Shown here piece by piece: positions 702 to 58,389 of a stretch of DNA of 64,000 bases. Position 1 is the stretch's first letter, and each line of letters starts with the position of its first letter. The notes below the pieces were generated by a model. The model did not search any database and had not been told where the DNA came from. It saw only the letters and a list, made by a program, of their open reading frames with translations. The DNA comes from a virus (lineage: Duplodnaviria > Caudoviricetes). The stretch spans positions 96,001-160,000 of IMG/VR virus record IMGVR_UViG_3300013947_000021, one strand, 5' to 3'. The position numbers and the translations under genes were made by a program.

Positions 702-1419
702 TTAGTTCATCTTTTTATAATAAATGTATTGTGAATTTAAATTTAAAGCATCTTGTTTATAACTATCAGATCCAAGAGAAAATAAACTTTGACTAGAATT
801 ATCTGTATATGCATTAGGATCAGTAGAACTAACATATTCTACTGTGCATTTATATAAATGAGTAATTCTACTAAATTTTCTTGTACTATATAAAGGATTT
901 ACAAGAGAATATCTAAGTGGTGATGATATTGATGATATTTTACATGCTAATTCTTGTTGATCATTTTTAACTGTAATAGATGTTGAGGTAGGACTATACT
1001 TAATAACCCAATATCCACTTAATGCACTTATATTTCCATCTGATTCATAATATTTTTTTCCATTAAATGTTATACGACACATATCATCAAGGTTTACTGA
1101 TTTTGGTGATGACAAATATAAAGTTACTGATGATCCATTTGTTTGAGTATATGTACCAGATCCTACATATATGGCGCTATTACTACTTACAGAAATACCA
1201 TCACTGCCAGAACTCATATCTATAATATCATATGAATATTCAGAATTATCTTTAGTATAAGTATATTTAGCCCATTTATATAATTTACTAAATATTAATT
1301 TACTAGTACCATTTATATTTCCATAAGCAGATATTAATTCTTTATTACTTCCATTATTATTAATATAGAGGGAGGTTAATTGTTTTGACCCCCCCCCCAA
1401 TATTTGTATACATTGACAT
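702..1419 (-). CDS. Poly-G cassette 1 (type A), putative adhesin/tip protein, phase OFF (G10)
   Basis: SD AAGGAG, ATG 1419 (MSMYTNI), C10 at 1389-1398 on + strand; span 718 = 3n+1; G9 would give MSMYTNIGGGSKQLTSLYIN. Confidence 0.85.
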
Positions 1420-1451
1420 TTTAATAATCTCCTTTAACAAATATTAGGATT

Positions 1452-2238
1452 TTAATATGTAGTACCATTATATCTATAAACATATGCTGCAGCCATACTA
1501 GATGAATTATATGTACTACTAGAATATTTATAGTCAGCATTAAGTACAGAATCAGACGACGCAGTATAATCATTTTTATTTTGTGTTAGAATTGAACGTT
1601 GGAATCTATACCTCCATAGATAATATGGAGTATTGTAGTAACTTAATTCAAAATAATCATATCTATATTTTACATATAAATTTTCAGTTTGTGATGGGCT
1701 ATAGCGTAATAAATATAATAAATACCATGCGTAATGAGCATATGATGGAGCACTAGGAGCATATTGACTAGACCAGTCTATACATGTATTATCTCCTCTT
1801 TCACCAGCTAATATAGCATAATAACCACTATATCTACTATTTGTAGATCTATCTGTTAATTCAGTATATGATACTAATGATGGATTATTTAATGTAATCT
1901 TTTTTGTACTATGATTAAAATTATAAGATCTTGCTACATAAAATTTAGCATCTGTATTTTCATCACCACTATTAGATGTATATCTATAAATACGATAATC
2001 TTCAGTGGATAGTCCAGTACGCCTCATTTCCGTTTCTACAAGATCCCACATTTTATTTCCATCGGTTGTAAGTTTATATTCTCCATAATTATGATATGAA
2101 ATTCTTCCATATATTTCTTTCTTACTTCCATTTATATTAGCATAAGCATTATTTAATTGCTTATTTGTTCCATTTTTATTTATATAGAGGGAAGCAATTT
2201 GACGTTGCCCCCCCCCCAATATTACTGTACATTGACAT
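1452..2238 (-). CDS. Poly-G cassette 2 (type A), phase OFF (G10)
   Basis: ATG 2238 (MSMYSNI), C10 at 2208-2217; span 787 = 3n+1. Confidence 0.85.
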
Positions 2239-2328
2239 AATAATCTCCTTTAACACAACAAATATTGAGGTTATAAAAATATTTTTATAAAAAATAAATG
2301 GGATTACATATGTAATCCCATTAATCAT

Positions 2329-2475
2329 TTATGCCTGATAATCTTCGCCAGTGATCAACTTATACTCTTCTTCGGTAAGATTACCAGTTCTAACAAAGGC
2401 CTTAATATGAGCCTTCTTATAAATCTTCTTATCATAATACTTCTTAATAGTATTAAAATACTTAGACTGTGCCAT
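2329..2475 (-). CDS. XkdX-like small phage protein, 48 aa (MAQSKYFNTIKKYYDKKIY...LTEEEYKLITGEDYQA)
   Basis: Translated by hand; GGAGG SD; paralog of 296-442. Confidence 0.75.
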   Translation of the reverse strand: MAQSKYFNTIKKYYDKKIYKKAHIKAFVRTGNLTEEEYKLITGEDYQA

Positions 2476-2492
2476 AATTAATACCTCCAATA

Positions 2493-3056
2493 TTATTCAG
2501 TGGTAGTTCCAGAATCGGCAGATGGATCAGTCGTCGGATCCGTTTCAGAACCAGATTCATTACCTGTATCGGTTGTAGGATCAGTATTTTCATCTGTACC
2601 AGGATCAGGCATATCTGGATCAGTTTCACCAGTAAGATTCTCAAACAGAAGCTGTGCATTCTCTTCCTCAAGACGCTTAACCTCTTCTTCATGAGCAGTA
2701 AGCTTACCCATATAAACAGTAATCTTTCCATCCTTATGGCAGACAATGTCACCAAGAATAGAATAATCAGTCTTGGGATAATCTACATCTCCATAAACAT
2801 CGTTACCTTCAGTATCCTTACCAGTAACCTCATTCTGCCTAATAGAAAATTCTGCATCATCCTTAAAGTAAGTACAAACTTCTCCATAATTAGTATCAGC
2901 AAGGGTAATACGAAGCACATCTCTATACTGCTGATCAACCATAGCCTGTTTATCAAAAATGCAAGGCTCAGTCTCTACAGGATAAGCAGCAGTAGTAAAG
3001 AGCTTTTCATTACCATCTTTATCCTTAAATACTACTCTATTCATAATAGTACTCAT
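2493..3056 (-). CDS. Tail-fibre-region protein upstream of XkdX (possible assembly chaperone), acidic T/D/P-rich tail
   Basis: ORF with AAGGAGG SD and late motif at 3090-3101; position before an XkdX-like gene. Confidence 0.6.
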   Translation of the reverse strand: MSTIMNRVVFKDKDGNEKLFTTAAYPVETEPCIFDKQAMVDQQYRDVLRITLADTNYGEVCTYFKDDAEFSIRQNEVTGKDTEGNDVYGDVDYPKTDYSILGDIVCHKDGKITVYMGKLTAHEEEVKRLEEENAQLLFENLTGETDPDMPDPGTDENTDPTTDTGNESGSETDPTTDPSADSGTTTE

Positions 3057-3154
3057 ATTTAATTTTATCCTCCTTAGAAAATAGATTTTTATCTAATTGT
3101 TTGATTAATATAATAATGTCTTTAGTAAGAAAAAATATTTATAATACCATTATT

Positions 3155-4001
3155 CTAGCCAATTAAATAATATGCAGAATTTATATTGTCTATAAGCGTT
3201 GTTGGTGATAATGATATAATTGGACGAATAAATATATTACTTATTGTAGCAATAATATCATGACCATTATAACTACTACCATTGTATGTTACTGTAAAAA
3301 CATAATTATCGCCATAATTACTACCAACATCACCACCAGGACTTCTCATCCAATAATAAGGTGCATAATCAGTTTTATCACTTTTTACTACTGATATTCT
3401 TGCTTCATCATCCATTGATGTTCTTCCAGCAGCTATTTTTAAAGCATCTAAATATGAAATACCTTCATCAGATAAATAACTATAAGAAGTAGAACTATAT
3501 CCAAGTTCAGAATATGATGGCAAGAATATATCTCTATTAATATTTATAATTTTTTTATTACTAAAAGAATAAGATTTTACACTAGTTTTAGTCAATCTGT
3601 TTCTAATAGATTCATCTAGTTTAGATCTATAATTATCTGTAGTTGAAACTTCTGCTGATAAATAATTATCTATAGTTGATGCATTATATTCTGAACTAGA
3701 TATGCTATTAAATGCTCTTAGTTCATACAAGTATCTTTGTAATAATAGTACAGTATCATTATTATAAGATGTACCTAATACTATAAAATCAGTAAGATTA
3801 TTAGAACCAGATAAAGTAGTATTAAACTTAATTATAGAACCAGCAGTTATACTACTTAAATATGCAAATTTCTTAAATATTTCTTTACTATTACCATTTA
3901 TATTTCCATATGCATTATTTAATGCTTTATTAGATCCATTATTATTTATATAGAGGGCGGCCAAAAGTTTCGACCCCCCCAATATTTATATGCATTGGCA
4001 T
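3155..4001 (-). CDS. Poly-G cassette 3 (type A), DUF6273-like domain, phase OFF (G7)
   Basis: ATG 4001 (MPMHINI), C7 at 3974-3980; ATG frame reads MPMHINIGGVETFGRPLYK*; body has IFLPS..E, YWMRSP and IRPII motifs. Confidence 0.8.
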
Positions 4002-4035
4002 AAGATAATGCCCTCCTTTACAAAATATTAGGGTT

Positions 4036-4853
4036 TTAAGCATAATATCCAAGATATTCATAATAATATCCATCACAATAATATGCTCGTGAACAAGTTT
4101 TAGGATAGTCATCACTATAATCAGAATCATCACTATACCAGCCTATTTTATATCCTGAATTACCACTAGTAAGATCAGTAACTACAGTACGGGAAGAACT
4201 ATATTTAGAAGCTCCAGTTGTAACTGTATTTAGACTAAGTTTACTATTATATTTAACTGTATTAAAATTAGTAGAATAGGATTTTGGTACTTTATAATAA
4301 ACACCATTTAACCTAAGTAATGCCCTATATTCAACATATGTATCATGATAAATGACTTCAAGTGATGAACCAGAAGATGAAACTTTAAATGCAATATTAT
4401 TATTAAATCCATAACCTGGAAAATAATATCCATCATATGAAGGATTAAGATAATAATAAATATCATTATCACTAGACTCAGTTCTATTGTAATCAAAATT
4501 TACACTATTATATCCAGAAAATTGTAATGATCCACTACTATTAGTATATGACATAGATGAATAAAGCGGTATAGTATCACTTGTACTAGAAAAACTTTTA
4601 GGACATAAATAATTTACAACTCCTTCATATGAATATCCAGTACTATCTTGCCAATATTGTATACTACATAATGTATATGAAGATACTGGATACTGTTTAT
4701 ACCAATAATATTTAGTAGCACTAAATATTACTTTACTGCTACCATTTATATTAGTATATATATTATTTAAAGCTTTAGAAGAGCCATCTTTATTTATATA
4801 GAGGGAGGCTAATTGTTTTTGCCCCCCCCCCCAATATTTGTATACATAGGCAT
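4036..4853 (-). CDS. Poly-G cassette 4 (type A), phase OFF (G11)
   Basis: ATG 4853 (MPMYTNI), C11 at 4822-4832; frame from 4821 (QKQLASLYINKDG...) stays open into ORF 4036..4554; span 818 = 3n+2. Confidence 0.85.
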
Positions 4854-4900
4854 TTTTATTATACCTACCTTTCTTTACAAAATATTAGGGTTTAATATAT

Positions 4901-5348
4901 TTATGATAAAATTATATAAAATATGGTTAAGTTATCACAAAATGATGTAAATATATTTCCAGTCATAGTTCCAATATTACAAAATTCCCATTGACGAACA
5001 AATTCAGTAGATGAATTCCCTTTATTATGAAAATATGCACGTATATTTATATTTGTTGTACTAGCAGTTGAAGTTGATACAATTGGACTTGATAAGCAAA
5101 GTATTGTATTATTTTGTTTGTCATAAATAAAAGAATCATTTTCTGATATATAAGTATTTGTATACATTGTTGCAGATGATCCATAATAATCTTTTTCATA
5201 TTTATAATTAAAACCAAATAATACATTATTAGAAAAAGTTATAGACTCATTTTTTGAAAGAACTTTAGTTTGTATTTTTCCTATTAAGGAGCTACTGCCC
5301 CCCCCCCAAGGATTTGCATACGCCGTTAATATTAGCATAAAGACTCAT
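4901..5348 (-). CDS. Poly-G cassette 5 (type B), phase OFF (G10)
   Basis: SD AAGGAG, ATG 5348 reads MSLYANINGVCKSLGGGQ*; C10 at 5298-5307; G9 fuses it to the downstream ORF. Confidence 0.8.
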
Positions 5349-5417
5349 AATTAATAATCTCCTTTATAAATTTATTTTTTATATAAGTGTTATAGATAAT
5401 GAAATTTATATAAAATT

Positions 5418-5443
5418 TCTCAGGTAGATTAATCTACCTGAGA
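5418..5443 (-). terminator. Terminator after cassette 6 (similar hairpins near 7399-7425 and 8088-8115)
   Basis: tctcaggtaga-ttaa-tctacctgaga. Confidence 0.7.
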
Positions 5444-5452
5444 TTAAGTTAT

Positions 5453-6403
5453 TTAAGCATGATACCCATCATATATCCAATAATATCCATTAAATATATA
5501 AATACCATAACTTGAAGCGCTACCACCAGATGGCAAATAATCTTGTGCATAACTTGATGTATCCATTGTACCATAATAACCATTTGTATCATCGTAATAA
5601 TCTCGAGCATATGATATATTTATATTTTTACTAGAAAGTATAGAAGTTGTATCACTAGATGATACAGTAAATTTTATAAACCTCATAGAGTCAAAACCAA
5701 GACTACTAGAATTATAGGTAAGCACATTAATTTTTGATGATGATAATGAATTTGGTGCAAAGAATGATCTTGGTAAATAATGTGCAAAATTTAAATAATA
5801 TGATGAATTTAAATTAGGAGCATGAATTACTACTGTTGAATATGCATTTTTATTATAATCTCTAGGAATTACAAAGTATGCTTTTGTAATACTAATATTA
5901 AGCTGATCAAATGTATTTCCATTATCTGTTCCTGTATCAAAATACGCATTAGTAAATTTATATACAGTTTCGCGAGTATAATCTGTACCAGTGTTTGTTA
6001 ATGTAGGTGTAACCAAACCCCTATCAACAGTCATCAATCCAGTAGTACTATAATAACCAATACTAGATATTGATGGAGTAACACCGCCAAGAACTTTCAT
6101 ACGTCCATCTGATTCCGGTGTTGGAGATATAGAAGAATATACTTTCTTACTGTTCTGATATGCACTCTTTAAATATCTTATATCATAATGACATGTGCCA
6201 TCATCAACTTCATATTCACATAATTGCCATTTAGTAACTGGATAAGCTCTCCAATAGCAATATTTAGTAGCACTAAATATTTCTTTATTGGTTCCATTTA
6301 TATTAGCATATGCATTAGATAATGCAATATTACTACTATCTTTATTTATATAAAGGGAAGCAATTTGTTTCTGCCCCCCCCCAATATTTGTATATAATGA
6401 CAT
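5453..6403 (-). CDS. Poly-G cassette 6 (type A), the only phase-ON copy (G9), 316 aa putative adhesin
   Basis: ATG 6403, MSLYTNIGGGQKQIASLYINK; C9 at 6374-6382; span 951 = 3n. Confidence 0.9.
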   Translation of the reverse strand: MSLYTNIGGGQKQIASLYINKDSSNIALSNAYANINGTNKEIFSATKYCYWRAYPVTKWQLCEYEVDDGTCHYDIRYLKSAYQNSKKVYSSISPTPESDGRMKVLGGVTPSISSIGYYSTTGLMTVDRGLVTPTLTNTGTDYTRETVYKFTNAYFDTGTDNGNTFDQLNISITKAYFVIPRDYNKNAYSTVVIHAPNLNSSYYLNFAHYLPRSFFAPNSLSSSKINVLTYNSSSLGFDSMRFIKFTVSSSDTTSILSSKNINISYARDYYDDTNGYYGTMDTSSYAQDYLPSGGSASSYGIYIFNGYYWIYDGYHA

Positions 6404-6487
6404 TTTAATAATCTCCTTTAACAAATAATGAGGTAAAATATAAGAAATATGAGATATGAAATTAATTTCATATCTCATTTAATATTT

Positions 6488-7330
6488 TTAACTGTATACT
6501 CCTAATATACTACCATTACCTGTAGGTGTACTAGCACTAGTATTTAATGCTATATTTCTTACTTGATAAGTAGTATAATTAGTATTAGCTTGTGCTACTA
6601 AAGCACCAGTTAATGTACCACCAGACTTAAGTAAATACTTATCTAATTCAGCAGCAACAGCTTTTCCACTTACTGGATTATCACTATTACTATTAAAAGT
6701 GCTATCTATTACAAGTCCACCATCTGGTATACTATCAATTTTGGTTCTATCAGAAACACTAATAAGCTTATCATCAGTAATATTATCAAGTTTCTTCTTA
6801 TCCTCTGCACTAATTAATCCTGGAGTTGTATCAGTAGCTTCAGGAGTATAATCTTTAGCAGCTTCAGCTAAATCACCAACAATCTCATATGCTCCACCAG
6901 TATAAAACATATGATATATCTTATTAATCTGAATATAATTTGCTTCTACATTAGTACCTCTATACTTAATATTCTTAGCTCCAGTAGCATTGATATTGAG
7001 TGTAGGAGATGCTGCAGTATTAGCATTAGTAAATTTTATATAAATATTATTTCCATCTTTTAATGCATAATTCTCACAGTCAACTGTTTTTGCAGCAGTA
7101 GCTCCAGCAGTAGTACATGTAAGAAGAGTATTTGTAGTATAATTAATAATAGTAGTATCTCCACCAGTAGAAGAACCACTACCAGAAATTTCTACTACAG
7201 CTCCAGCAGAATCTTTCATGTAAATTTTATGATTATCCCAGTCAGCTATAAGCTCTTTATTAGTAGCTAAACTAGCATTTGCATAAGATAAAGGCCTAAA
7301 TGGTATTCTAGCCGTAGCTTCATGACCCAT
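6488..7330 (-). CDS. Short tail fibre / fibre adaptor with shared C-terminal module
   Basis: TCTTAGATAAKTV...KFTNANTAASPTLNINATGAK fibre motif; C-terminal KSGGTLTGAL...GNGSILGVYS. Confidence 0.75.
   Translation of the reverse strand: MGHEATARIPFRPLSYANASLATNKELIADWDNHKIYMKDSAGAVVEISGSGSSTGGDTTIINYTTNTLLTCTTAGATAAKTVDCENYALKDGNNIYIKFTNANTAASPTLNINATGAKNIKYRGTNVEANYIQINKIYHMFYTGGAYEIVGDLAEAAKDYTPEATDTTPGLISAEDKKKLDNITDDKLISVSDRTKIDSIPDGGLVIDSTFNSNSDNPVSGKAVAAELDKYLLKSGGTLTGALVAQANTNYTTYQVRNIALNTSASTPTGNGSILGVYS
6495..6629. repeat. 135-bp perfect direct repeat, copy 1 (copy 2 at 11994-12128)
   Basis: Identical DNA encoding the C-termini of two fibre genes. Confidence 0.9.
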
Positions 7331-7476
7331 ACTATAACCTCCTTGATATAATTAAATTTTTATATAAATGTTATTAGAAGCAAATAATAGCCAAAAATAT
7401 CTCGGGTAGAAAAATCTACCCGAGATCTATCTATATGAATTCTAATTTATATAAATTAGAAAAATAATTTTATTTT

Positions 7477-8012
7477 TTACCAAGCTATATAATAATATTT
7501 TTCATTTGTATTATTATAAAGAGTAGCTTCTATATTATTATCACTATTATTACTATCATATGTACTATAAATATGCTGTAATGAAAAAAGTAATGTTCCA
7601 CCATCACTACAATCTGTAGTTGTTACTCTTGACGTATTTATTAATTGCAATTTATTATCTGAAATAGATACTGCGCTGTATTGAATTGGTCCGATAGTTT
7701 TATTACTACTTGATCCACTTCCATTACTCGACCATGAATCAACTCCGGATAAATAATAATATAGTGATGTAGAAGGTGTAACAACAAGAATAGATTGTGC
7801 AGAATCAGAAATTAATATTAATGTATTTATGTTAATGGGTAATATAATTTCTCTAGGAGTTGATGAAATACAACCTACGCTTCTATAACTTCTATTTCCA
7901 CTAACTTTTAAATCATAATATCCAGTTCCATCACCACTGTAATAACCGCTTACAATATTACTGCCCCCCCCAAGGATTTGCATACGCCATCAATATTAGC
8001 ATAAAGACTCAT
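7477..8012 (-). CDS. Poly-G cassette 7 (type B), phase OFF (G8)
   Basis: ATG 8012 reads MSLYANIDGVCKSLGGAVIL*; C8 at 7964-7971; span 536 = 3n+2. Confidence 0.8.
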
Positions 8013-8130
8013 AATTAATAATCTCCTTTATAAATTTATTTTTTTTACATAATTGTTATAGATAAAGAAAATTATATAAAAATAATATCTCAGGTAGAAT
8101 TAATTCTACCTGAGAAAATATAAAATTTAA

Positions 8131-9040
8131 TTAACTATGATATCCATCATAAACCCACCAATATCCATTGAATATATAAATATACTCAAGTACAGAATTG
8201 GTAGCACTTGGCATATATCCATCAGTATAGTTAGATGTATCCATTATTCCATATCCACCTTCATAACTGCTAAATGTATCTCTGACATCTGCAACACCAT
8301 CGGAAACTAGTGTAACACTTTTTAATGAATGTAAGCCTTCTACGTTTTTAGAAGGATAATTATATACTTGCTGAAGTGAGTTTGGACTTGCTACATCATC
8401 TGGAAGATATACTCCAAATGTACTTCTTAAAGACCCATCATCATCTGGAACATAAAATCTTACTGTTGTATATGTATTTTTATTATATGATTTAGGAACT
8501 ACATAATATGCTTGTGTTATTTTTATATTAATTGTATCAAATATATTACCAGTACCATCATTTGCAGTAGATAAATACGCATTAGTAAATTTATATACAG
8601 TTTCGCGAGTATAATCTGTACCAGTGTTTGTTAATGTAGGTGTAACCCAACCCCTATCAACAGTCATCAATCCAGTAGTACTATAATAACCACCACTAGA
8701 TATTGATGGAGTAACACCGCCAAGAACTTTCATACGTCCATCTGATTCTACTGTTGAAGATATAGAAGAATATACTTTTTTACTGTTCTGATATGCACTC
8801 TTTAAATATCTTATATCATATTCATAATAACTACTTCCTGCACTACTGCAATGAACTAATTCCCATGCATTAACAGGATAAGCTTTCCAACAATAATATT
8901 TAGTAGCACTAAATATTTCTTTATTGGTTCCATTTATATTAGCATATGCATTAGATAATGCAATATTACTACTATCTTTATTTATATAAAGGGAAGCAAT
9001 TTGTTTCTGCCCCCCCCCCAATATTTGTATATATAGGCAT
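8131..9040 (-). CDS. Poly-G cassette 8 (type A), close paralog of cassette 6, phase OFF (G10)
   Basis: ATG 9040 (MPIYTNI), C10 at 9010-9019; span 910 = 3n+1. Confidence 0.85.
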
Positions 9041-9082
9041 AATATATAATCTCCTTTATTAAAATATTAGGATATATTTTAT

Positions 9083-9812
9083 CTAAATAGATTTATAAAA
9101 ATACTGTGTTCCAGACTCACTACTATACCAGTTTAAATAAAAATCTGATCCCAAATCAGTTCTATTACTTGATGAATATTCTGATTTATTAGTTGAATAT
9201 ACTTTTGTCTGACTTTGATATTGCATTAATCGCACAGTTCCGTTGCGTATTGTTCCATTACATCTTATTTCTATAGGATTGACCGTTATTTCTGAAATTC
9301 TATATCCATAAGCTCTCTGTGTATAACTTGTATCAGAATAATCTACACTAGAATCACTAAATTCAAAATTACTTTGTATTAAAGTCCACAATGGCACTGG
9401 TGCTATACTAGATAAGTATTGATAATGATATGTAGTGCCATTATAATATAATGAACTTGAGCCAACTGACTCTAGTAATTTATAATTATTAAGCGATATA
9501 GTTTTCTTAGATGTATTTATTGTGTATGATTGAGATACCCATAATCCTGCAGACTCATCTAATAGATATGCTAACTCTGATGTATAATCAGATCCTTCAC
9601 CAGACCATGTAGACACATCTGGTTGTGTTTCACTTGTACTAGAGCCATAATAAGTATATCTAATCCAGCCATAAAGTGGGGCAAATATTTGTTTACTTGC
9701 TCCATTTATATTAGCATAAGCACTATTTAGTACTTTTCTAGTACCATTATTATTCATATAAAGGGAGACAATTTGTCGTTGCCCCCCCCCCAATATTATT
9801 GTATATTGGCAT
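9083..9812 (-). CDS. Poly-G cassette 9 (type A), phase OFF (G10)
   Basis: ATG 9812 (MPIYNNI), C10 at 9782-9791; span 730 = 3n+1. Confidence 0.85.
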
Positions 9813-9847
9813 AACCATATACCTCCTATTAGGGATTTATAATATTT

Positions 9848-10535
9848 TTAATTAGCTCCAATATATTCATATTTATAATTACCATATTCTCCTTCAGAAT
9901 ATGCATTTCTATTTGTAGAAGTTAATGTAGTATCATATTCCCATCTATATCCATCAGATGTATTTTGTACATCCAATTGATAGGAATCAGAATAATTACA
10001 TTTAATATCACTATCTCCAATAATAGATTCAAAACTAGAAATTTCAAATAAATAGATATAGCTTGGAGCTGTATCTGATCTACTGCACTGATATTCTTTT
10101 ATTGGAGAAGGCTGATATTGAGATCGCGTACTAAATGGGTCTTCATATAAGAACAAATATCCAGAATATGTAGTTACTTTATAATATACAGTAGCAGCTC
10201 CCGATGTATGCTTTACTTCACTGTCAATACGTACATTATTATCATCACAACTTATACTATATACATAAGTGCTTGAGCTTAATGAATAATTACTAGCATA
10301 ATAAAGCGTGCCAAAATAATTTGTAAAAGAACCAGAACCCAAAGATTCTGATAATCCTTTTTTACTTACTTTTTTAATATATCTTTTCCATATATAAACT
10401 AATGCAGGGAAAATTTTCTTACTAGTGCCATTTATATTGCCATATAATGCATTAGTAGATCTTCTTGTACATTGTTATTTATATAGAGGGAAGCAATTTG
10501 TTTCTGCCCCCCCCAATATTACTGTACATTGGCAT
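9848..10535 (-). pseudogene. Poly-G cassette 10 (type A), G8 plus a second 1-nt deletion near 10470
   Basis: ATG 10535 (MPMYSNI), C8 at 10507-10514; AAT GTA CA where paralogs have AAT GGT AC; tract change alone does not restore the frame. Confidence 0.75.
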
Positions 10536-10588
10536 ATAAATGCCTCCTTTACAAAATATTAGGGTATTATTTTTTAATATAAAATTAA

Positions 10589-11417
10589 TTAAATTAATTG
10601 ATAATTTTTATCTATAACAGTAGATTTACTAAATGATAGTGCTGGACGAACATATATACCTGATACAATAGGATAAGCTTCAGCCCTATCGGCATCTTTA
10701 TTTTCTGAGTTACCATTATAATAGTTGGAATATGGAACATCTTTATTTGTACTATACTCATCTCTCAACCAATAATTTCTATAATATTCCTCTTCAGTTT
10801 TAAATTGCCTTGCTTTATATGGTACAGTTTTCCCAGTAGCTATCTTTAAAGCATCTAAATATGATTTACCCATTCCATATCCAAAACTGGCACCAAGACT
10901 CCAACCAACTTCTGCCATAGATAATAAAAATATATCTCTTAATTCTTTTATAACAGGATATGTACTATCTTCTATGCATTGTATCATTATTTCAGTCTTT
11001 ACCAATTTACTTCTAATAGATGAATCTAATTTAGATCTATAACTATCTGATGCTGAAGCATCTGCTGATAAATATTTATCTATATTAGAATCATAATAAT
11101 GAGGACTACCATTCGAATCAAATACTCTCGAATTACCATATGAATATCTTTGTAATAATAATATAGTATCATTATTATAAGATGTACCCAGAACTATAAA
11201 ATCTGTAAGTTTATTAGAACCAGATAAAGTAGTATTAAATTTAACTATAGAACCAATTGATATATCAGCTAATGGTGTTCCTAAATTAAATATTTCTTTA
11301 CTACTACCATTTATATTTCCATATGCATTAGATAATGCTTTAGATGAACCATCTTTATTAATATAGAGGGAGGTTAATTGTTTCGACCCCCCCCCCAATA
11401 TTTGTATATAATGACAT
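10589..11417 (-). CDS. Poly-G cassette 11 (type A), DUF6273-like domain, paralog of cassette 3, phase OFF (G10)
   Basis: ATG 11417 (MSLYTNI), C10 at 11387-11396; IFLLS..E, YWLR and VRPAL motifs. Confidence 0.85.
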
Positions 11418-11458
11418 TTTAATAATCTCCTTTAACAAATATTAGGGATATTAATTAT

Positions 11459-11873
11459 TTATGATAAAATCATATAGCTTAAATTCATAATTATACTTGA
11501 AAAGTTTGCATTTGGAGTAAATATTCCATTGTTAATATTACATATTGTTATATCATCAGATCCACTAGTAGATGTTGATGATGCAGCACTAATAGTTATA
11601 TTATTAGAAGAATCAACAGAAATTATTCCAATATAATTAGAGTTGTTGGTGCAATATGATCCTATAATTTTATTTGTATTTCTATTATAATAAATATTCA
11701 ATACATTACTTCCAATATAAGCAAATTGTAATATCAATATTATAGTAGTACCATTAAATGTAACACTATTATACCTATTAGTGACATTATATGTAGTTCC
11801 TATAATATAAGAACCATTATTACCCCCCCCCCAAATCTTTGGAGGCTCCATCAATATTAGCATAAATACTCAT
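11459..11873 (-). CDS. Poly-G cassette 12 (type B), phase OFF (G10)
   Basis: ATG 11873 reads MSIYANIDGASKDLGGG*; C10 at 11823-11832; span 415 = 3n+1. Confidence 0.8.
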
Positions 11874-49579: not shown

Positions 49580-51004
49580 TCAAACCTCTTCATTATTTTT
49601 ATAATTATTTTCGGAAGATATATCTTTATAATCTTTTTCAACCTGCTTAGTATCTATTCCAAAATTATTAGCAATAATTTCTTCTACACTCTTTACAGGT
49701 TCACCGACAAATTCTTCAGTATCAATATCTTCAGCAATATATTCATCAATAGCATACTTAGGTCTAATAAGCTCATTGATAAATTCATTATGCTCTTTAC
49801 ACCAATCATATAAAGATGATGCAAAAGTTCTAATCTCTGCCTGTGCAGCAGTATCTACTCTAAGTATAAAGAACATGAAAAGATTACTAAATGTAAACGT
49901 CATAAATATCTTTCCACATTCTACATTACTAGGAAGAAATGCTCTTGCATCTTCCTTAAGAAGTGCCTGTTTAATACCTTCCTCTTCATTAAGAGATTTA
50001 TTAGTAAGATCTTTATATATTCCAATTTCTGCTTTGCCAATATCAGCTAAAGTCATAGAATATTTGTTTCCACCAAATTCAAAGTTATACTTAGTATTTG
50101 AATCGTATCTGTCTGTAAATCTATCAGGAGATGCAAATGAAGCATCACTATAATTTACATATCTCTGGCTTTCCTGTGTAATAGCATTTCTATGTCTTAC
50201 AAGCTGATGAGTACAAGTTCTACTCATATTCTTAAAAAGTATAGTAACCGACAAGAAGTCATATACATCTCTTTCATTAAATATCTTCTTAGTCTCTCCA
50301 TAAGTAAGTAATGCATTATTAAGTCTTTCAAGGAAGATATCGATATTATCAATCCAGAGTATATCAAATAACTTTGTAGATACTCTATTAATTCCTTCAG
50401 CAGGTCTTATACTCTTAGAACAATTATACATAAGAACTTTATCAGTATTTTCAAAGTCTTCTTTTTGTAATATGGAACTTAAATGTTCGTCTTTCAGAAT
50501 ATCTTCGAAAAAACAACTATGAGCACAGCTCTTAAGCTGTCTAATAATAAACTTTAATACAGTATTGCTATAGATATTATCAATATTCTTTATAAGATCA
50601 CTGTATGCTCTATAAGAACCACCAATAAGTAAATACCAAGCAGTATTATCAGTAGACTTCTTAATAGCAGTGCGAAGATATCTACAAGCAGATACAAGCT
50701 TTATAAGATCATCAGAATATTCATTGGGAATTTTAAGAAGCATAACACAATTGCTATGCTCAGTAACTGATGTATGTCCAATTCTAGATCTCTTAGCTAT
50801 ATATTCAGCCTGAGTATCATAGGAAGTTGGAATTGGTCTGTTCCAGCAACAAGCACAAGCTTCTGCTACAATTGGAACTGCATGATTTTCAGATATAATG
50901 GTTCCTTCTATAGAACCAATATATGTATTCTCTTTCTTTTTAGAATTCTTGGTAAAAATCTTTCCAAAGAAATTCTTATTATCACCAATAGGATTATTTG
51001 TCAT
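49580..51004 (-). CDS. thyX: Flavin-dependent thymidylate synthase with duplicated ThyX fold
   Basis: GHTSVTEH in the N-terminal half; SRTCTHQLVRHR..ITQESQRY, EDARAFLP, AQAEIR in the C-terminal half. Confidence 0.9.
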   Translation of the reverse strand: MTNNPIGDNKNFFGKIFTKNSKKKENTYIGSIEGTIISENHAVPIVAEACACCWNRPIPTSYDTQAEYIAKRSRIGHTSVTEHSNCVMLLKIPNEYSDDLIKLVSACRYLRTAIKKSTDNTAWYLLIGGSYRAYSDLIKNIDNIYSNTVLKFIIRQLKSCAHSCFFEDILKDEHLSSILQKEDFENTDKVLMYNCSKSIRPAEGINRVSTKLFDILWIDNIDIFLERLNNALLTYGETKKIFNERDVYDFLSVTILFKNMSRTCTHQLVRHRNAITQESQRYVNYSDASFASPDRFTDRYDSNTKYNFEFGGNKYSMTLADIGKAEIGIYKDLTNKSLNEEEGIKQALLKEDARAFLPSNVECGKIFMTFTFSNLFMFFILRVDTAAQAEIRTFASSLYDWCKEHNEFINELIRPKYAIDEYIAEDIDTEEFVGEPVKSVEEIIANNFGIDTKQVEKDYKDISSENNYKNNEEV

Positions 51005-51767
51005 TTTTAGATTTCCTTTCATATTTTCCATTCATTGAATTTACTACAGTAGATACTTCTTCCCATATCTCAAATGTAAGTTTGTCTCTACTTTTTATCT
51101 GTTTGTTTCTTTCATCACAATATATCCAAACTGGAGTGATTCCAGCTCGTTCAAATATCTTTCCATTTTTTATATAAGAAATCTTATCCCATACTTCTCT
51201 AAGCATATTAGTATCATTCTCATTCATATCTCTATTCTTCTTTTTCTGAAGCTCAGAGATATAAAAATCAAAATTATGATACATAAGCCATACTACAATA
51301 TCTGGGCTAGGAACTTCCATAGATTCCTCACTTCGAAAATCTTCAGGAGTGATCCTCTTATTATTATAAAGAATATTCGATACATTATATCTATCGAATA
51401 TAAATGCATGTGGATGATTTTCAGATTTATAAAGTTCTATATTAGTTGTATATCCAAATTCACGAGAGAATATTTTAGAATTCCAATATGCAACTCTATC
51501 TATTGTAAAGAATGATTTGATTACTTCAGGGCACTGCTTAAGAAGATCTCTGTCAAAATCTCCATTAAGCCACTTTTTAAGTAATGCACTAGACCAATCA
51601 TCATATCTAGGAAATGATTCATATTCTATTCTTCCAAATGGAAAAGTTGTTGCAAGCTTTTCAGCAAATGCTCTTGCATTAGTTTCTTTAAAACAATTGT
51701 CTAATCCTTCAAATGCTATAATTTTTCCTCCAGGGAAATATTCCATTGACATAAAAGTTGCCTCCAT
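50994..51767 (-). CDS. tmk: Thymidylate/dNMP kinase
   Basis: IIAFEGLD..FKET P-loop variant, SFPRY, IFDRY..SN, PDIV. Confidence 0.8.
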   Translation of the reverse strand: MEATFMSMEYFPGGKIIAFEGLDNCFKETNARAFAEKLATTFPFGRIEYESFPRYDDWSSALLKKWLNGDFDRDLLKQCPEVIKSFFTIDRVAYWNSKIFSREFGYTTNIELYKSENHPHAFIFDRYNVSNILYNNKRITPEDFRSEESMEVPSPDIVVWLMYHNFDFYISELQKKKNRDMNENDTNMLREVWDKISYIKNGKIFERAGITPVWIYCDERNKQIKSRDKLTFEIWEEVSTVVNSMNGKYERKSKNDK

Positions 51768-56631: not shown

Positions 56632-58389
56632 TTACTTCAGAATATATACATTATTTGCAGGATTCGGAAGAATAAACTGATTGCAAGTAATCATAAGAGT
56701 AAGAATCTTAGCAACAGCATCAAGAATAGTAATATCGGACATAATAGAAGACTTTACATTATCAGTCCATATATTTTCTCTAATATTATAAGCAGTATTA
56801 TTAATAAGCTTTTTCTTAATAAGATCCATAATCTCATCAGGAGTATTATCAGCAAAGCTATTAGAATAAAGTCCACTTACAAGCTTATCATATGCATCTG
56901 CAAATGCTTCTATAATAGGCTTGGTATATTCTGTAAATGTGTAATCCTTAAAGATATCTGATTCATAATTAGTTATATTCTTATAAATACGAGTAATAGA
57001 ATCAACTGCAGAAAGGTTTGCAGCATATCCTACACCATTAGCATCTGCAGAACGAATATTAAGAACAGCATCTTCTACAAGATCTCTAATAGTATCTCTA
57101 TCAGTCTGAGTTGCTCCACCAACAAATATCTCAACCATATTAGACTTAAGAGAATTATATCTTCTCTTTACTCGTCCAATATCTCGTACATCCCCTTCGG
57201 CAGTAAGATTCTTAATTTCAGATTCAAGATAAGAAAGAAGGCTCTTATAAAGATTACTATAAGAACCATCCTCATTAAACATCTCATGAGGACGAACAAA
57301 TGTAGTCTTATCAGAATAAGCGATCACTCTATCACAAGTACCTGCCCAATCAAATACAGTATCAGGAGTAGGAGCAAGCCCATTCTTTACATCCTGCTCA
57401 AATACTCTAGGATCAAGATACTTTCTAATAAGTTTAGCTCCACACATCTTAGAAAGATCTGCAAGCTGATCAGGATCAGAAAAATCAGTGATAATACAAA
57501 TAGGAAGTCTATTGTTTATAGGCATCTTTGCCATATTAGCAACAAGGGAATCCATAATACTCGAAGAATCCTGAGTAATCTTTGGTGCAAAAATTACAGT
57601 AGGAATGATCTCATCATACTTCTGAGCATTTACAGGAGTAATAATATTATGAGAAAGAATGGAATCAAAATATACTCCAAGCTCACGAGTATCAATAGGA
57701 TGCTCAAAGAAATATACTTCAGGCTTATCAATAACAGAAGTATTCTTACTTGCATCAGTAATATAACAAGTATCTGCATAACCCGCATTAATTGTCATAC
57801 CATTATAATACTTTACGTATGTATCATTTCCTATAGCAGGAGTTACATCAATAAATACTCCTCTTCCCATAGTATTATAAACTTCCTTAAGAAGATTAGA
57901 CATTTCAACGTTTCCATTAGTAGAAATCATTGCAATATCATATGCATCATCGACGATAAATTCCTTTGCACTATTCTTAATGGTATCCTTAATAAGTTCT
58001 ACCATACTCTTAATCTGTCTAGCAAATTCTGCAGGCTCAATATAATTAAACTTTTCAGACTTATAAATAGTATCATAAAAATATGCAGAAAGAAGAACTG
58101 CAGAAGTTGTGCCATCACCAACAGTCTTTACAATATAACGAGTAATAGATTCAATATCTTCTCTAACAGAATCTTCAATAACTCCATTATATCTTACTGC
58201 TCCGATAATACTATGTCCATCCTTAGTATATCTAGGAAGATTATTATCCTGCTTAATACAAGCATTAGATCCATTTGGTCCAAAAGAAAGCTTAAGAATA
58301 TCTGCAAGCTCAAGAAGAGTATTATGATAAATTTCTCCAAGCTTTTCCTTAGGTACTACATTATTAATTGCACTACTAATAATCGCCAT
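56632..58389 (-). CDS. groEL: Phage-encoded GroEL-like chaperonin
   Basis: SFGPNG, TKDGHSI, VGDGTTSA, ISTNG, VGGAT, VEDAV motifs. Confidence 0.9.
   Translation of the reverse strand: MAIISSAINNVVPKEKLGEIYHNTLLELADILKLSFGPNGSNACIKQDNNLPRYTKDGHSIIGAVRYNGVIEDSVREDIESITRYIVKTVGDGTTSAVLLSAYFYDTIYKSEKFNYIEPAEFARQIKSMVELIKDTIKNSAKEFIVDDAYDIAMISTNGNVEMSNLLKEVYNTMGRGVFIDVTPAIGNDTYVKYYNGMTINAGYADTCYITDASKNTSVIDKPEVYFFEHPIDTRELGVYFDSILSHNIITPVNAQKYDEIIPTVIFAPKITQDSSSIMDSLVANMAKMPINNRLPICIITDFSDPDQLADLSKMCGAKLIRKYLDPRVFEQDVKNGLAPTPDTVFDWAGTCDRVIAYSDKTTFVRPHEMFNEDGSYSNLYKSLLSYLESEIKNLTAEGDVRDIGRVKRRYNSLKSNMVEIFVGGATQTDRDTIRDLVEDAVLNIRSADANGVGYAANLSAVDSITRIYKNITNYESDIFKDYTFTEYTKPIIEAFADAYDKLVSGLYSNSFADNTPDEIMDLIKKKLINNTAYNIRENIWTDNVKSSIMSDITILDAVAKILTLMITCNQFILPNPANNVYILK

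Follow-up and report, generated by a model that had tools for sequence, protein, structure and literature searches.

Genomic setting of the poly-G gene array

The 64,000-nucleotide (nt) stretch analyzed here (the window) comprises bases 96,001-160,000 of a 221,227-bp IMG/VR record with a G+C content of 29.6%. It carries an array of twelve genes with poly-G tracts near their starts, and in nine of these the RNA around the start codon is predicted to fold into a conserved double hairpin that includes the tract. The genome encodes a GroEL-like protein and a virion structural protein, and split RNA polymerase subunits are encoded by relatives, which come from human gut metagenomes and are about 220 kb long. 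Based on these genes and the 221-kb genome size, we infer that the record represents an uncultured jumbo phage.

Runs of at least 6 G or C occur twelve times in the entire genome. All lie within window positions 1389-11832, and all read as poly-G in the sense of minus-strand genes. Tract lengths range from G7 to G11 (seven to eleven G), with G10 in seven of the twelve; this genome-wide count agrees with an earlier examination of the letters of the window (hereafter, the sequence-only reading). In nine cassettes, designated type A, the ATG is located 21 nt upstream of the tract and the reading frame is continuous straight after it. The three type B cassettes (5, 7 and 12) have the ATG 41 nt upstream of the tract, and the same rule applies to both types: a gene is ON only if the tract length is a multiple of 3. 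Cassette 6 (G9, gene 5453-6403) is the sole ON cassette. The array consists of twelve phase-variable genes for putative tail-fibre tips, each switched by slippage of a 5'-proximal poly-G tract.

The predicted proteins have an N-terminus of three xYxNIxGxSKxL repeats, the first of which takes its glycines from the tract. Relatives that lack the tract start MPIYANINGNSK. Because paralogs without a poly-G tract begin MPIYANING, we consider the ATG-proximal peptide to be the genuine N-terminus. A C-terminal DUF6273 domain was identified in cassettes 3 (3155-3973) and 11 (10589-11386; both on the minus strand, E-values of 1e-18 and 8e-14). It is the only Pfam domain, and the remaining tips have no match in Pfam or PHROG. 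Structure prediction for the ON protein gave a mean predicted local distance difference test score of 49.6, too poor to support a fold search. Megablast against GenBank phages returned no match. An IMG/VR DNA pattern scan for AATATT plus G8 found 66 loci, none of them related; the ON protein used as a query for related loci recovered nothing, and a profile of the N-terminus recovered only the contig of a distant clade (clade II, see below).

A predicted double hairpin around the start codon

Two helices are predicted in all nine type A cassettes (Table 1). The first (stem 1) involves a leader motif, YYYY-AATATT-T(T)GT, that ends 0-6 nt before the Shine-Dalgarno (SD) sequence. Its partner is ACA-AAT-ATT (codons 5-7) plus the first 3-4 G of the tract, so that the SD and AUG are placed in a loop of about 30 nt. 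The second (stem 2) is formed by the remaining G and a C-rich patch 13-21 nt past the tract, with the consensus [A/G]C[C/T][T/G]CCCT[C/T]. The patch encodes (Thr/Ala/Val)-Ser-Leu using ACC, GCC, GCT or GTC, then TCC, then CTC or CTT. The leader-by-coding duplexes have energies of -10.2 to -17.7 kcal/mol, compared with -5 to -7 ± 2 for shuffled leaders (z of -2.8 to -5.7). The double hairpin is the minimum free energy (MFE) or centroid fold in eight to nine of the nine cassettes, with fold z-scores of -1.2 to -3.8, seven of them at or below -2.5. Both helices had been proposed in the sequence-only reading, stem 1 as pairing of leader and coding arm around the SD and AUG, and stem 2 as pairing of the tract with genome-atypical C-rich codons. 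Both are borne out in nine of nine cassettes, with the patch 13 nt downstream of the tract and, for its codons, a recoding p of at most 0.015 (see below).

Within this shared plan the leaders differ. Inner hairpins between the spacer and the gene's own AUG plus codons 2-3 take the forms GGCAU:AUGCC (cassettes 3 and 10), UAGGUAU:AUGCCUA (cassette 4), GGACAUU:AAUGUCU and UUUCUA:UGGGAA; the commonest leader type has none. In cassette 3 the inner hairpin buries the AUG (accessibility 0.03), and stem 1 appears only in the centroid structure because both stems contest the short tract. Cassette 4, for which none of 200 shuffles was as stable, has the most stable MFE structure (-35.5 kcal/mol) among 166 start regions. 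Stem 1 of cassette 2, which includes a GTTGTG leader extension, consists of 10 bp, an internal loop and a further 5 bp. In the ON cassette the leader core reads ATTATT and there is one mid-stem U-U mismatch. The weakest stem 1 of the window is that of cassette 8. The leader arm of cassette 9 (CCCTAATA) is shortened and adjoins the SD; its stem 1 of 8-9 bp is accompanied by a second helix between the spacer and codons 2-4.

Type B cassettes show no comparable fold. In cassette 12, the rare codons GCC and TCC just upstream of the tract form a small local hairpin (CCUCCAA/UUGGGGG, 11832-11873), and in no other type B cassette is the run contacted by a C-rich partner, which here lies on its 5' side.

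Table 1. Coordinates and folding scores of the cassettes and other features. Positions are those of the window unless a contig is named; duplex refers to stem 1.
Feature	Tract, state	Span	Strand	Leader arm	ATG	Coding arm	Tract position	Patch	Fold z	Duplex (kcal/mol; z)	Covariance model R1 (bits)	Remarks
Cassette 1 (type A)	G10, OFF	1368..1448	-	1437-1448	1417-1419	1395-1407 (with first G)	1389-1398	1368-1376	-2.73	-14.4; -4.4	110.4	Double hairpin in MFE structure
Cassette 2 (type A)	G10, OFF	2187..2270	-	2254-2270 (with GTTGTG extension)	2236-2238	2214-2226	2208-2217	2187-2195	-3.02		63.2	
Cassette 3 (type A)	G7, OFF	3953..4033	-	4020-4033	3999-4001	3977-3989	3974-3980	3953-3961	-1.16			
Cassette 4 (type A)	G11, OFF	4801..4890	-	4877-4890	4851-4853	4829-4841	4822-4832	4801-4809	-3.84			
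Cassette 5 (type B)	G10	5298..5348	-						-0.40			No leader motif, no significant fold; recoding p 0.17
Cassette 6 (type A)	G9, ON	6353..6433	-	6421-6433	6401-6403	6379-6391	6374-6382	6353-6361	-2.73	-13.8		
Cassette 7 (type B)	G8	7964..8012	-						+1.32			Recoding p 0.50
Cassette 8 (type A)	G10, OFF	8989..9072	-	9061-9072	9038-9040	9016-9028	9010-9019	8989-8997	-1.50	-10.2; -2.8		
Cassette 9 (type A)	G10, OFF	9761..9834	-	9827-9834	9810-9812	9788-9800	9782-9791	9761-9769	-2.57		49.6	
Cassette 10 (type A)	G8, OFF	10486..10564	-	10550-10564	10533-10535	10511-10523	10507-10514	10486-10494	-2.56			
Cassette 11 (type A)	G10, OFF	11366..11447	-	11435-11447	11415-11417	11393-11405	11387-11396	11366-11374	-3.10	-17.7; -5.7	109.4	
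Cassette 12 (type B)	G10	11823..11873	-						-1.36 (-1.4)			Recoding p 0.11
In-frame TTG at tract edge		1398-1400, 2217-2219, 3980-3982, 9019-9021, 9791-9793, 11396-11398	-									
Unit-cutting terminator-like hairpins (six)		11969-11935, 8115-8088, 7426-7399, 6478-6449, 5443-5418, 2322-2297	-									
Recombinase genes, L075/L076		1840-2844 and 4955-5959										
Recombinase gene, L097		25-1446										
Recombinase gene, L098		7612-9033										
Recombinase gene, L103		739-2160										
Recombinase gene, L104		1691-3112										

Evidence for selection on the RNA

Start regions of 116 nt were compared with those of 166 other genes of the genome. The type A regions have folding energies of -23 to -35.5 kcal/mol, compared with -15.8 ± 5.4 for the background, and eight of the nine rank within the top 4. 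The mean fold z-score of the sense RNA (-2.6) compares with -0.5 for the antisense strand and -1.7 when DNA parameters are used. This sense-strand bias is the pattern expected if G-U pairs matter, and in silico it sustains the earlier suggestion that frequent G-U pairs reflect selection at the RNA level. There is no further occurrence of the leader motif in the 221-kb genome. A covariance model derived from the leader and fold scores only nine sites in the window (49.6-110 bits), and the next best site has 20 bits.

Codon choice provides a further line of evidence. C-ending codons account for 6.7% of codons genome-wide (ACC is 8.3% of Thr, GCC 3.0% of Ala, GTC 5.0% of Val, TCC 3.8% of Ser and CTC 6.1% of Leu codons; GGG is 2.9% of Gly codons). 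In 41 distinct cassettes of the clade to which this phage belongs, C occupies the third position of the three patch codons in 106 of 123 cases, and a purine never does. Thr is always ACC (21/21) and Val always GTC (4/4); Ala is GCC in 10, GCT in 6 and GCA in none; Ser is TCC in 36 and TCT in 4; and Leu is CTC in 34, CTT in 7 and TTA in none. Leu in the hairpin loop, by comparison, is TTA in 25 of 28 cases. Similarly, Ile just outside the stems is ATT in 19 and ATA in 18, and Ile within stem 1 is ATT in 40 and ATC in 1. The Thr of stem 1 is ACA in 26 of 26 cassettes, though ACT is the preferred Thr codon. Given the variation at loop and flanking positions, recent ancestry has not fixed the synonymous sites; codon choice is constrained at precisely the positions where pairing demands it.

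As a null model, the 12 codons after the tract were resampled at genome codon frequencies and folded with a G10 run. Resampled sequences reach -5 to -8.5 ± 3 kcal/mol, compared with the observed -14 to -20 (p ≤ 0.015 in every type A cassette of the clade). For two distant clades p is below 0.02 in three of eight cassettes, and type B cassettes are not significant. Synonymous recoding of the patch abolishes the predicted stem 2 pairing. Together with recurrence in relatives (see below), genome background, strand asymmetry, codon usage and the recoding null form five independent lines that point beyond chance and ancestry. Overall, the modelling supports, in silico, selection acting at the mRNA level, with complementarity that is strand-specific, enforced by codon choice and conserved in one phage clade.

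Covariation between the arms

The sequence-only reading singled out two cases of covariation. The first was the base beside the tract and its partner, which form a pair in all nine window cassettes. In 43 distinct cassettes of the clade these positions are UA in 16, CG in 14, UG in 6 and a mismatched CA in 7, and by distinct haplotype the association is not significant (Fisher p = 0.39), so this claim did not hold. The second was the GTTGTG extension of cassette 2, said to match a changed coding sequence, TACAG(T). The two can indeed pair, but the coding change AGT coexists with a standard leader in cassette 10 and in a relative (L081:7743), and the extension is therefore not a clean compensation.

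Broader comparisons are more favorable. Cognate combinations of a leader with the first 21 coding nt plus GGGG sum to -588, compared with -533.5 ± 10.6 when leaders are swapped (0 of 5000 permutations). With one representative for each of 12 leader types the median z is -2.7 and the median p is 0.002 (90th-percentile p of 0.028); part of this signal stems from the inner hairpins, which were not part of the sequence-only reading. Alignments for this analysis were made with a covariance model and custom scripts. Of the cells in the model-fitted alignment (53 distinct sequences), 94.9% can pair, compared with 92.8 ± 0.3 in shuffles and 54-75% for slid partners, and seven pairs are changed on both sides, compared with 2.8 ± 1.1 in shuffles, although an alignment fitted in this way leans to structure. 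One possible double compensatory change was found, in L095:13084: set against the ortholog L081:18660, its leader shows GT>AC and the codon paired with it ACA>GTA. Within the sequence of the ortholog, the four combinations have energies of -19.9, -17.7, -17.5 and -19.9 kcal/mol, as in textbook compensation, although the context of L095:13084 itself makes the case ambiguous (see below).

RNAalifold, which the sequence-only reading had named as a check, recovers stem 2 on a plain MAFFT alignment and misses stem 1 because the G runs are right-aligned there and a 1-nt bulge shifts the leader register. Taken together, covariation beyond shared ancestry appears to be present but moderate: the aggregate signals are positive, though modest, and the examples originally named do not hold up.

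Occurrence in related phages

Both elements recur, with differing tract lengths, in related contigs (L081/L082, L085, L095, L096, L100-102, L087, L089 and L093). Stem 1 is found in most cassettes of one clade, represented by five related contigs. Among the first 27 distinct cassettes of this clade, 24 have stem 1 duplex z-scores of -2.2 to -6.8. The more distant clades II and III are represented by a 226-kb contig (CACVEC010000001) and a 235-kb contig, and there the stem 2 patch is partly retained. A search of Rfam 15 with the elements gave no match at E ≤ 1.

Paralogs in which the tract is interrupted (GGTGGTGGTGGG, GGGGGAGGGG) or absent retain parts of the arms. Several of these are locked ON (GGAGGGAGT and the two forms just mentioned; L085:7673-7760, L103:3958-4040 and L107:329-410). 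In L085:7673, GAGGGA is perfectly Watson-Crick complementary to the downstream UCCCUC patch; L103:4926 has the same GGAGGGAG without such a partner.

Tract length variation and switching

Tract lengths differ between the window and the near-identical relatives L087 and L089 (G8/G11, G10/G11, G10/G12, G9/G10 and G8/G10). For example, cassette 10 is G8 in the window and G11 in L087, cassette 8 is G10 in the window and G12 (ON) in L087, and cassette 6 is G9 in the window and G10 in L089. Three tracts differ in length between L081 and L082. G10 is the modal length in every relative, followed by G9, and most cassettes are nominally OFF in each assembly. Judged from these sequences, the poly-G tracts are genuine contingency loci: the homopolymer is mutable, its length sets the frame, and that length is polymorphic between near-identical contigs. 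Switching between ON and OFF is a matter of ordinary DNA slippage, for which the fold is not required.

Cassette 10 carries a further 1-nt deletion about 33 nt past the tract (GGT to GT in an NNNGT motif; window 10432-10514), which is shared with L087. The gene is dead at any tract length, and both fold arms are retained.

In the G10 and G7 states, a TTG formed by the last two T of AATATT and the first G is in frame with the long open reading frame (ORF). Public gene calls start at this codon and thus report proteins beginning MGGG or LGGG. We do not regard it as a real start: there is no SD at a usable distance, and the codon lies inside stem 1.

Transcription of the array

Eleven terminator-like sites were detected in a scan of the array, none of them at stem 2. 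Stem 2 itself was rejected as an intrinsic terminator, as no U run follows it (the sequence after the patch is UAUAUUAAU). Six of the terminator-like hairpins cut the array into units (Table 1), and one of these precedes cassette 2 (2322-2297) and another cassette 6 (6478-6449). AACA(N6)TA-like motifs precede the type B cassettes and a fibre gene (6488-7330), which stand first in their units. Type A cassettes usually lie inside polycistronic units; they are located 2-32 nt past the previous stop codon and lack promoter-like motifs.

Sigma-70-type sites, defined by -35 and -10 hexamers spaced 16-18 nt apart, are no more frequent than expected (90 found, compared with 98 ± 9.5 in shuffles), and none recurs at the leader motif. 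The leader motif is confined to the array and was rejected as a general promoter. Upstream of the starts of 169 ORFs, the 7-mers AACTTAT and AAACATA/AACATAA/AACATTT are enriched 6- to 9-fold at 30-45 nt. These are reminiscent of the late promoters of phage AR9, AACA(N6)TW. We tentatively regard the AACTTAT and AACATA-like 7-mers as candidate promoters for the multisubunit RNA polymerase of the phage itself. In AT-rich DNA such as this, the loose AACA(N6)T(A/T) pattern turns up about as often as expected by chance, and the promoter calls are accordingly tentative.

Proposed role of the fold and alternatives

Partition function calculations were used to model the consequences of the fold. The probability that a tract G is paired is 0.97 in type A cassettes. 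It falls to 0.72 when the flanks are shuffled, and stands at 0.49 for type B cassettes and 0.84 for the distant clades. The run remains about 0.97 paired whatever its length between 6 and 13, as the pyrimidine arms can jointly take up about 12-13 G. Accessibility of the SD-AUG region is 0.41-0.65, compared with 0.49 ± 0.15 for the 166 other genes, and is flat for tract lengths of 5-13; the exceptions are three cassettes with an inner hairpin that buries the AUG (AUG accessibility 0.03-0.04). Of the three functions suggested in the sequence-only reading, masking of the G run fits these values; promotion of slippage or frameshifting is taken up below. Tuning of initiation by tract length does not fit them: exposure of the ribosome binding site does not change with tract length in the models, and is no lower than in the 166 genes. 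Constant pairing of the run combined with ordinary SD-AUG accessibility favors masking over tuning.

On balance, we think it slightly more likely than not that the fold serves to neutralize the tract in its mRNA form; no part of the AT-rich message complements the anti-SD more strongly. The fold would hold the sticky, SD-like G run double-stranded at tract lengths of about 6-13 G and leave the ribosome binding site open in the loop. Initiation would then occur only at the real AUG, and the tract would be kept from acting as a decoy anti-SD binding site or a pause site. Masking may also avert other harmful RNA or RNA-DNA interactions of the G run. Tract length would matter via the reading frame alone.

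A number of observations weigh against masking, or against a conserved fold in general. The leader motif is missing from six cassettes of the clade (L081:17917, L085:9258, L085:12865, L095:5358, L096:3481 and L100:3892), which have different leaders, some of these clearly the product of recombination with type B leaders. Clades II and III keep the tract at the same place and have no complementary leader (z of about 0). In type B cassettes half of the G run is unpaired, at the shuffled-flank value of 0.49. Three type B-like cassettes also have the leader motif upstream, with no G partner adjacent to it. Disruptive changes occur, including a mid-stem A>T in the sole ON cassette (6382) and others in L100:777, L095:11512 and L107:329. 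Cassettes 2 and 6 follow terminator-like hairpins, so their transcripts might begin inside or after the leader arm. The coding arm, which encodes Asn-Ile-Gly plus the tract, is near-invariant and leaves little room for strict covariation. The sequences are recombining paralogs and orthologs, thus counts are non-independent, and the model-fitted alignment favors structure. In its own background, L095:13084 can adopt an alternative register in which the double change is neutral.

Some of these points could be taken to mean that no functional fold exists. The leader motif would then be another cis element (a cassette promoter or protein site) or a relic, the C-ending codons would serve a rare-codon ramp or out-of-frame stops, and the complementarity would be inherited from one ancestral cassette. 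A single ancestral module does underlie all cassettes, and its arms hardly vary. The motif contains a -10-like TAATAT, and cassettes 2 and 6, behind their terminator-like hairpins, need some promoter. In addition, stem 1 is dispensable in six cassettes and two clades, C-rich patches occur in paralogs without a G run (L104:4060 and L103:3958), and the tract-adjacent pair is not significant. We nevertheless consider this explanation unlikely. The same G run is flanked by two independent complementary partners, and the signal is strand-asymmetric. The rare codons of the patch end in C or T and never in G, though G-ending codons are equally rare, and neighbouring synonymous sites vary freely. Cognate arms outperform swapped arms at the level of leader types. 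As regards a promoter, the motif is absent elsewhere in the genome and sigma-70-like sites do not exceed those in shuffles.

The position of type A cassettes within operons raises the possibility of a gate on internal starts. The fold would lock the start codon in read-through RNA and would be opened by upstream ribosomes (translational coupling that depends on the phase of the preceding gene) or by transcripts that begin within the hairpin, on the model of T4 genes e and soc. Type A cassettes do lack the promoter-like motifs seen before type B cassettes and the fibre gene, and they closely follow the previous stop codon. Several leader types have an inner hairpin that buries the AUG (GGCAU:AUGCC, UAGGUAU:AUGCCUA and GGACAUU:AAUGUCU), and type A-like genes that head units with a promoter-like motif (L095:5358 and L085:7673) have no leader arm. 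Against this, predicted SD-AUG accessibility is average in six of the nine cassettes, the commonest leader type forms no inner hairpin, and the distance from stop codon to arm varies from 2 to 32 nt. Strict coupling over four to five mostly OFF genes would shut down almost all of them. Stem 2 and its rare C-ending codons would be left unexplained. A gate of this kind seems quite improbable.

A more elaborate proposal is that the double hairpin is a dedicated RNA device of the switch whose fixed helical frame sets how ribosomes or RNA polymerase handle a wrong-length run (for example, by +1 recoding of G10), perhaps with translation that also depends on the phase of the upstream cassette. Twelve binary switches would thereby become a graded or hierarchical host-range rheostat. 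We regard this as a long shot.

The complementarity could instead operate in DNA, with single-stranded hairpins altering slippage rates, quasi-palindrome template switching mimicking compensation, or the arms guiding cassette recombination. In some cassettes DNA parameters still yield a predicted fold (z of -4.1 and -2.75), the exact dinucleotide swap in L095:13084 is the expected product of quasi-palindrome correction, and leaders and coding starts are visibly reshuffled among cassettes. The DNA z-scores are weak in seven of nine cassettes, however, many positions would be G-T, a poor pair in DNA, and the complementary strand has no fold. Type B and other-clade tracts are equally length-variable without such repeats, and a role in DNA appears very unlikely.

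Finally, the fold and SD-like run could aid recoding, promoting +1 frameshifting or transcriptional slippage so that G10 leaks in-frame protein. In Escherichia coli prfB, an SD-like element immediately preceding the shift site stimulates the +1 frameshift, and known -1 stimulatory structures sit 5-9 nt downstream of the slippery site. We give this the least credence: G10 is modal in the window and relatives, tRNA-Gly can re-pair in any frame on the run (GGG being a rare codon), and a run of at least 7 G trivially meets the X XXY YYZ slippery pattern, but the run itself lies inside the helices with no separate downstream hairpin predicted, and masking would hide it from the anti-SD. G10 is also the commonest length in type B cassettes, which lack the fold, and the prevalence of G10 may reflect mutational equilibrium or homopolymer assembly bias.

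Relation to known systems

Start-region hairpins are known from polycistronic mRNAs, including those of T4 genes e and soc and of the MS2 replicase and lysis genes. As in these cases, an upstream leader in the window cassettes pairs with early coding sequence and encloses the SD and AUG of an internal gene. In T4 and MS2 the pairing takes in the SD or the AUG itself, with translation blocked, whereas here both are mostly in a loop with average predicted accessibility, and the helices are placed on a hypermutable run. The window cassettes share with prfB (+1, upstream SD-like element) and dnaX (-1, downstream hairpin) a G-rich SD-like element, a run that permits re-pairing and a nearby hairpin. 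Unlike in prfB and dnaX, the hairpins contain the slippery run, and the shift site has no defined hungry or stop codon.

In Campylobacter Fletchervirus phages, receptor-binding genes are described as carrying hypermutable polyG tracts (Sorensen et al. 2021, Cell Rep 35:109214, as cited in PMC10877375), and contingency loci have recently been claimed for T2 and T4 (Gomez et al., bioRxiv 10.1101/2025.10.21.683753). As excerpted, these accounts share with the window a 5'-proximal homopolymer in host-recognition genes, slippage that sets the frame, and tract lengths that differ between otherwise identical genomes. The excerpts mention no RNA fold around the tract; the window, in contrast, has twelve tandem cassettes, nine with leader and rare-codon arms. 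The pil1 locus of Streptococcus gallolyticus combines a repeat with a hairpin attenuator: GCAGA repeats in a separate leader peptide determine where the ribosome stops and thereby whether the terminator is destabilized (PMC3894217). As in pil1, a hypermutable repeat near the start codon works with an RNA stem-loop. The window tract differs in that it is inside the gene itself and part of both helices, with no terminator-like tail.

Poly-G contingency loci in phage receptor-binding genes, phage start-region hairpins and a repeat-plus-hairpin attenuator are thus already known. Our literature search, which was incomplete in coverage, turned up no account of a conserved fold in mRNA that incorporates the hypermutable run itself. 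Phase variation by homopolymer slippage is usually seen as purely a matter of DNA; here the RNA copy of the tract is apparently under selection too, and rare codons and a dedicated leader motif are spent on its base-pairing. If this is correct, it would mean that long G runs are a burden in mRNA, which genomes pay to offset, or a signal that they put to use. The combination of a leader complement and a patch of C-ending codons would provide a signature for finding functional contingency loci in uncultured phages, and the array would be a compact test system for the interplay of SD-like runs, hairpins and reading-frame maintenance. The twelve switchable tips add to recent evidence that phages hedge host range by means of contingency loci.

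Other features of the window and relatives

In the distant clades, a gene for a tyrosine integrase or a large serine recombinase (Resolvase/Recombinase/Zn_ribbon_recom) adjoins the fibre-tip gene cluster (Table 1), and gene content beside the recombinase differs between L075 and L076. Recombinases may provide a second layer of tip variation in these phages. XkdX-like genes of 48 residues occur between cassette groups in relatives. Elsewhere in the window, the GroEL-like chaperonin matches PHROG 5725 (E-value of 7e-61), and another protein contains a thymidylate-synthase-like region (56632-58389 and 49580-51031, respectively; minus strand).

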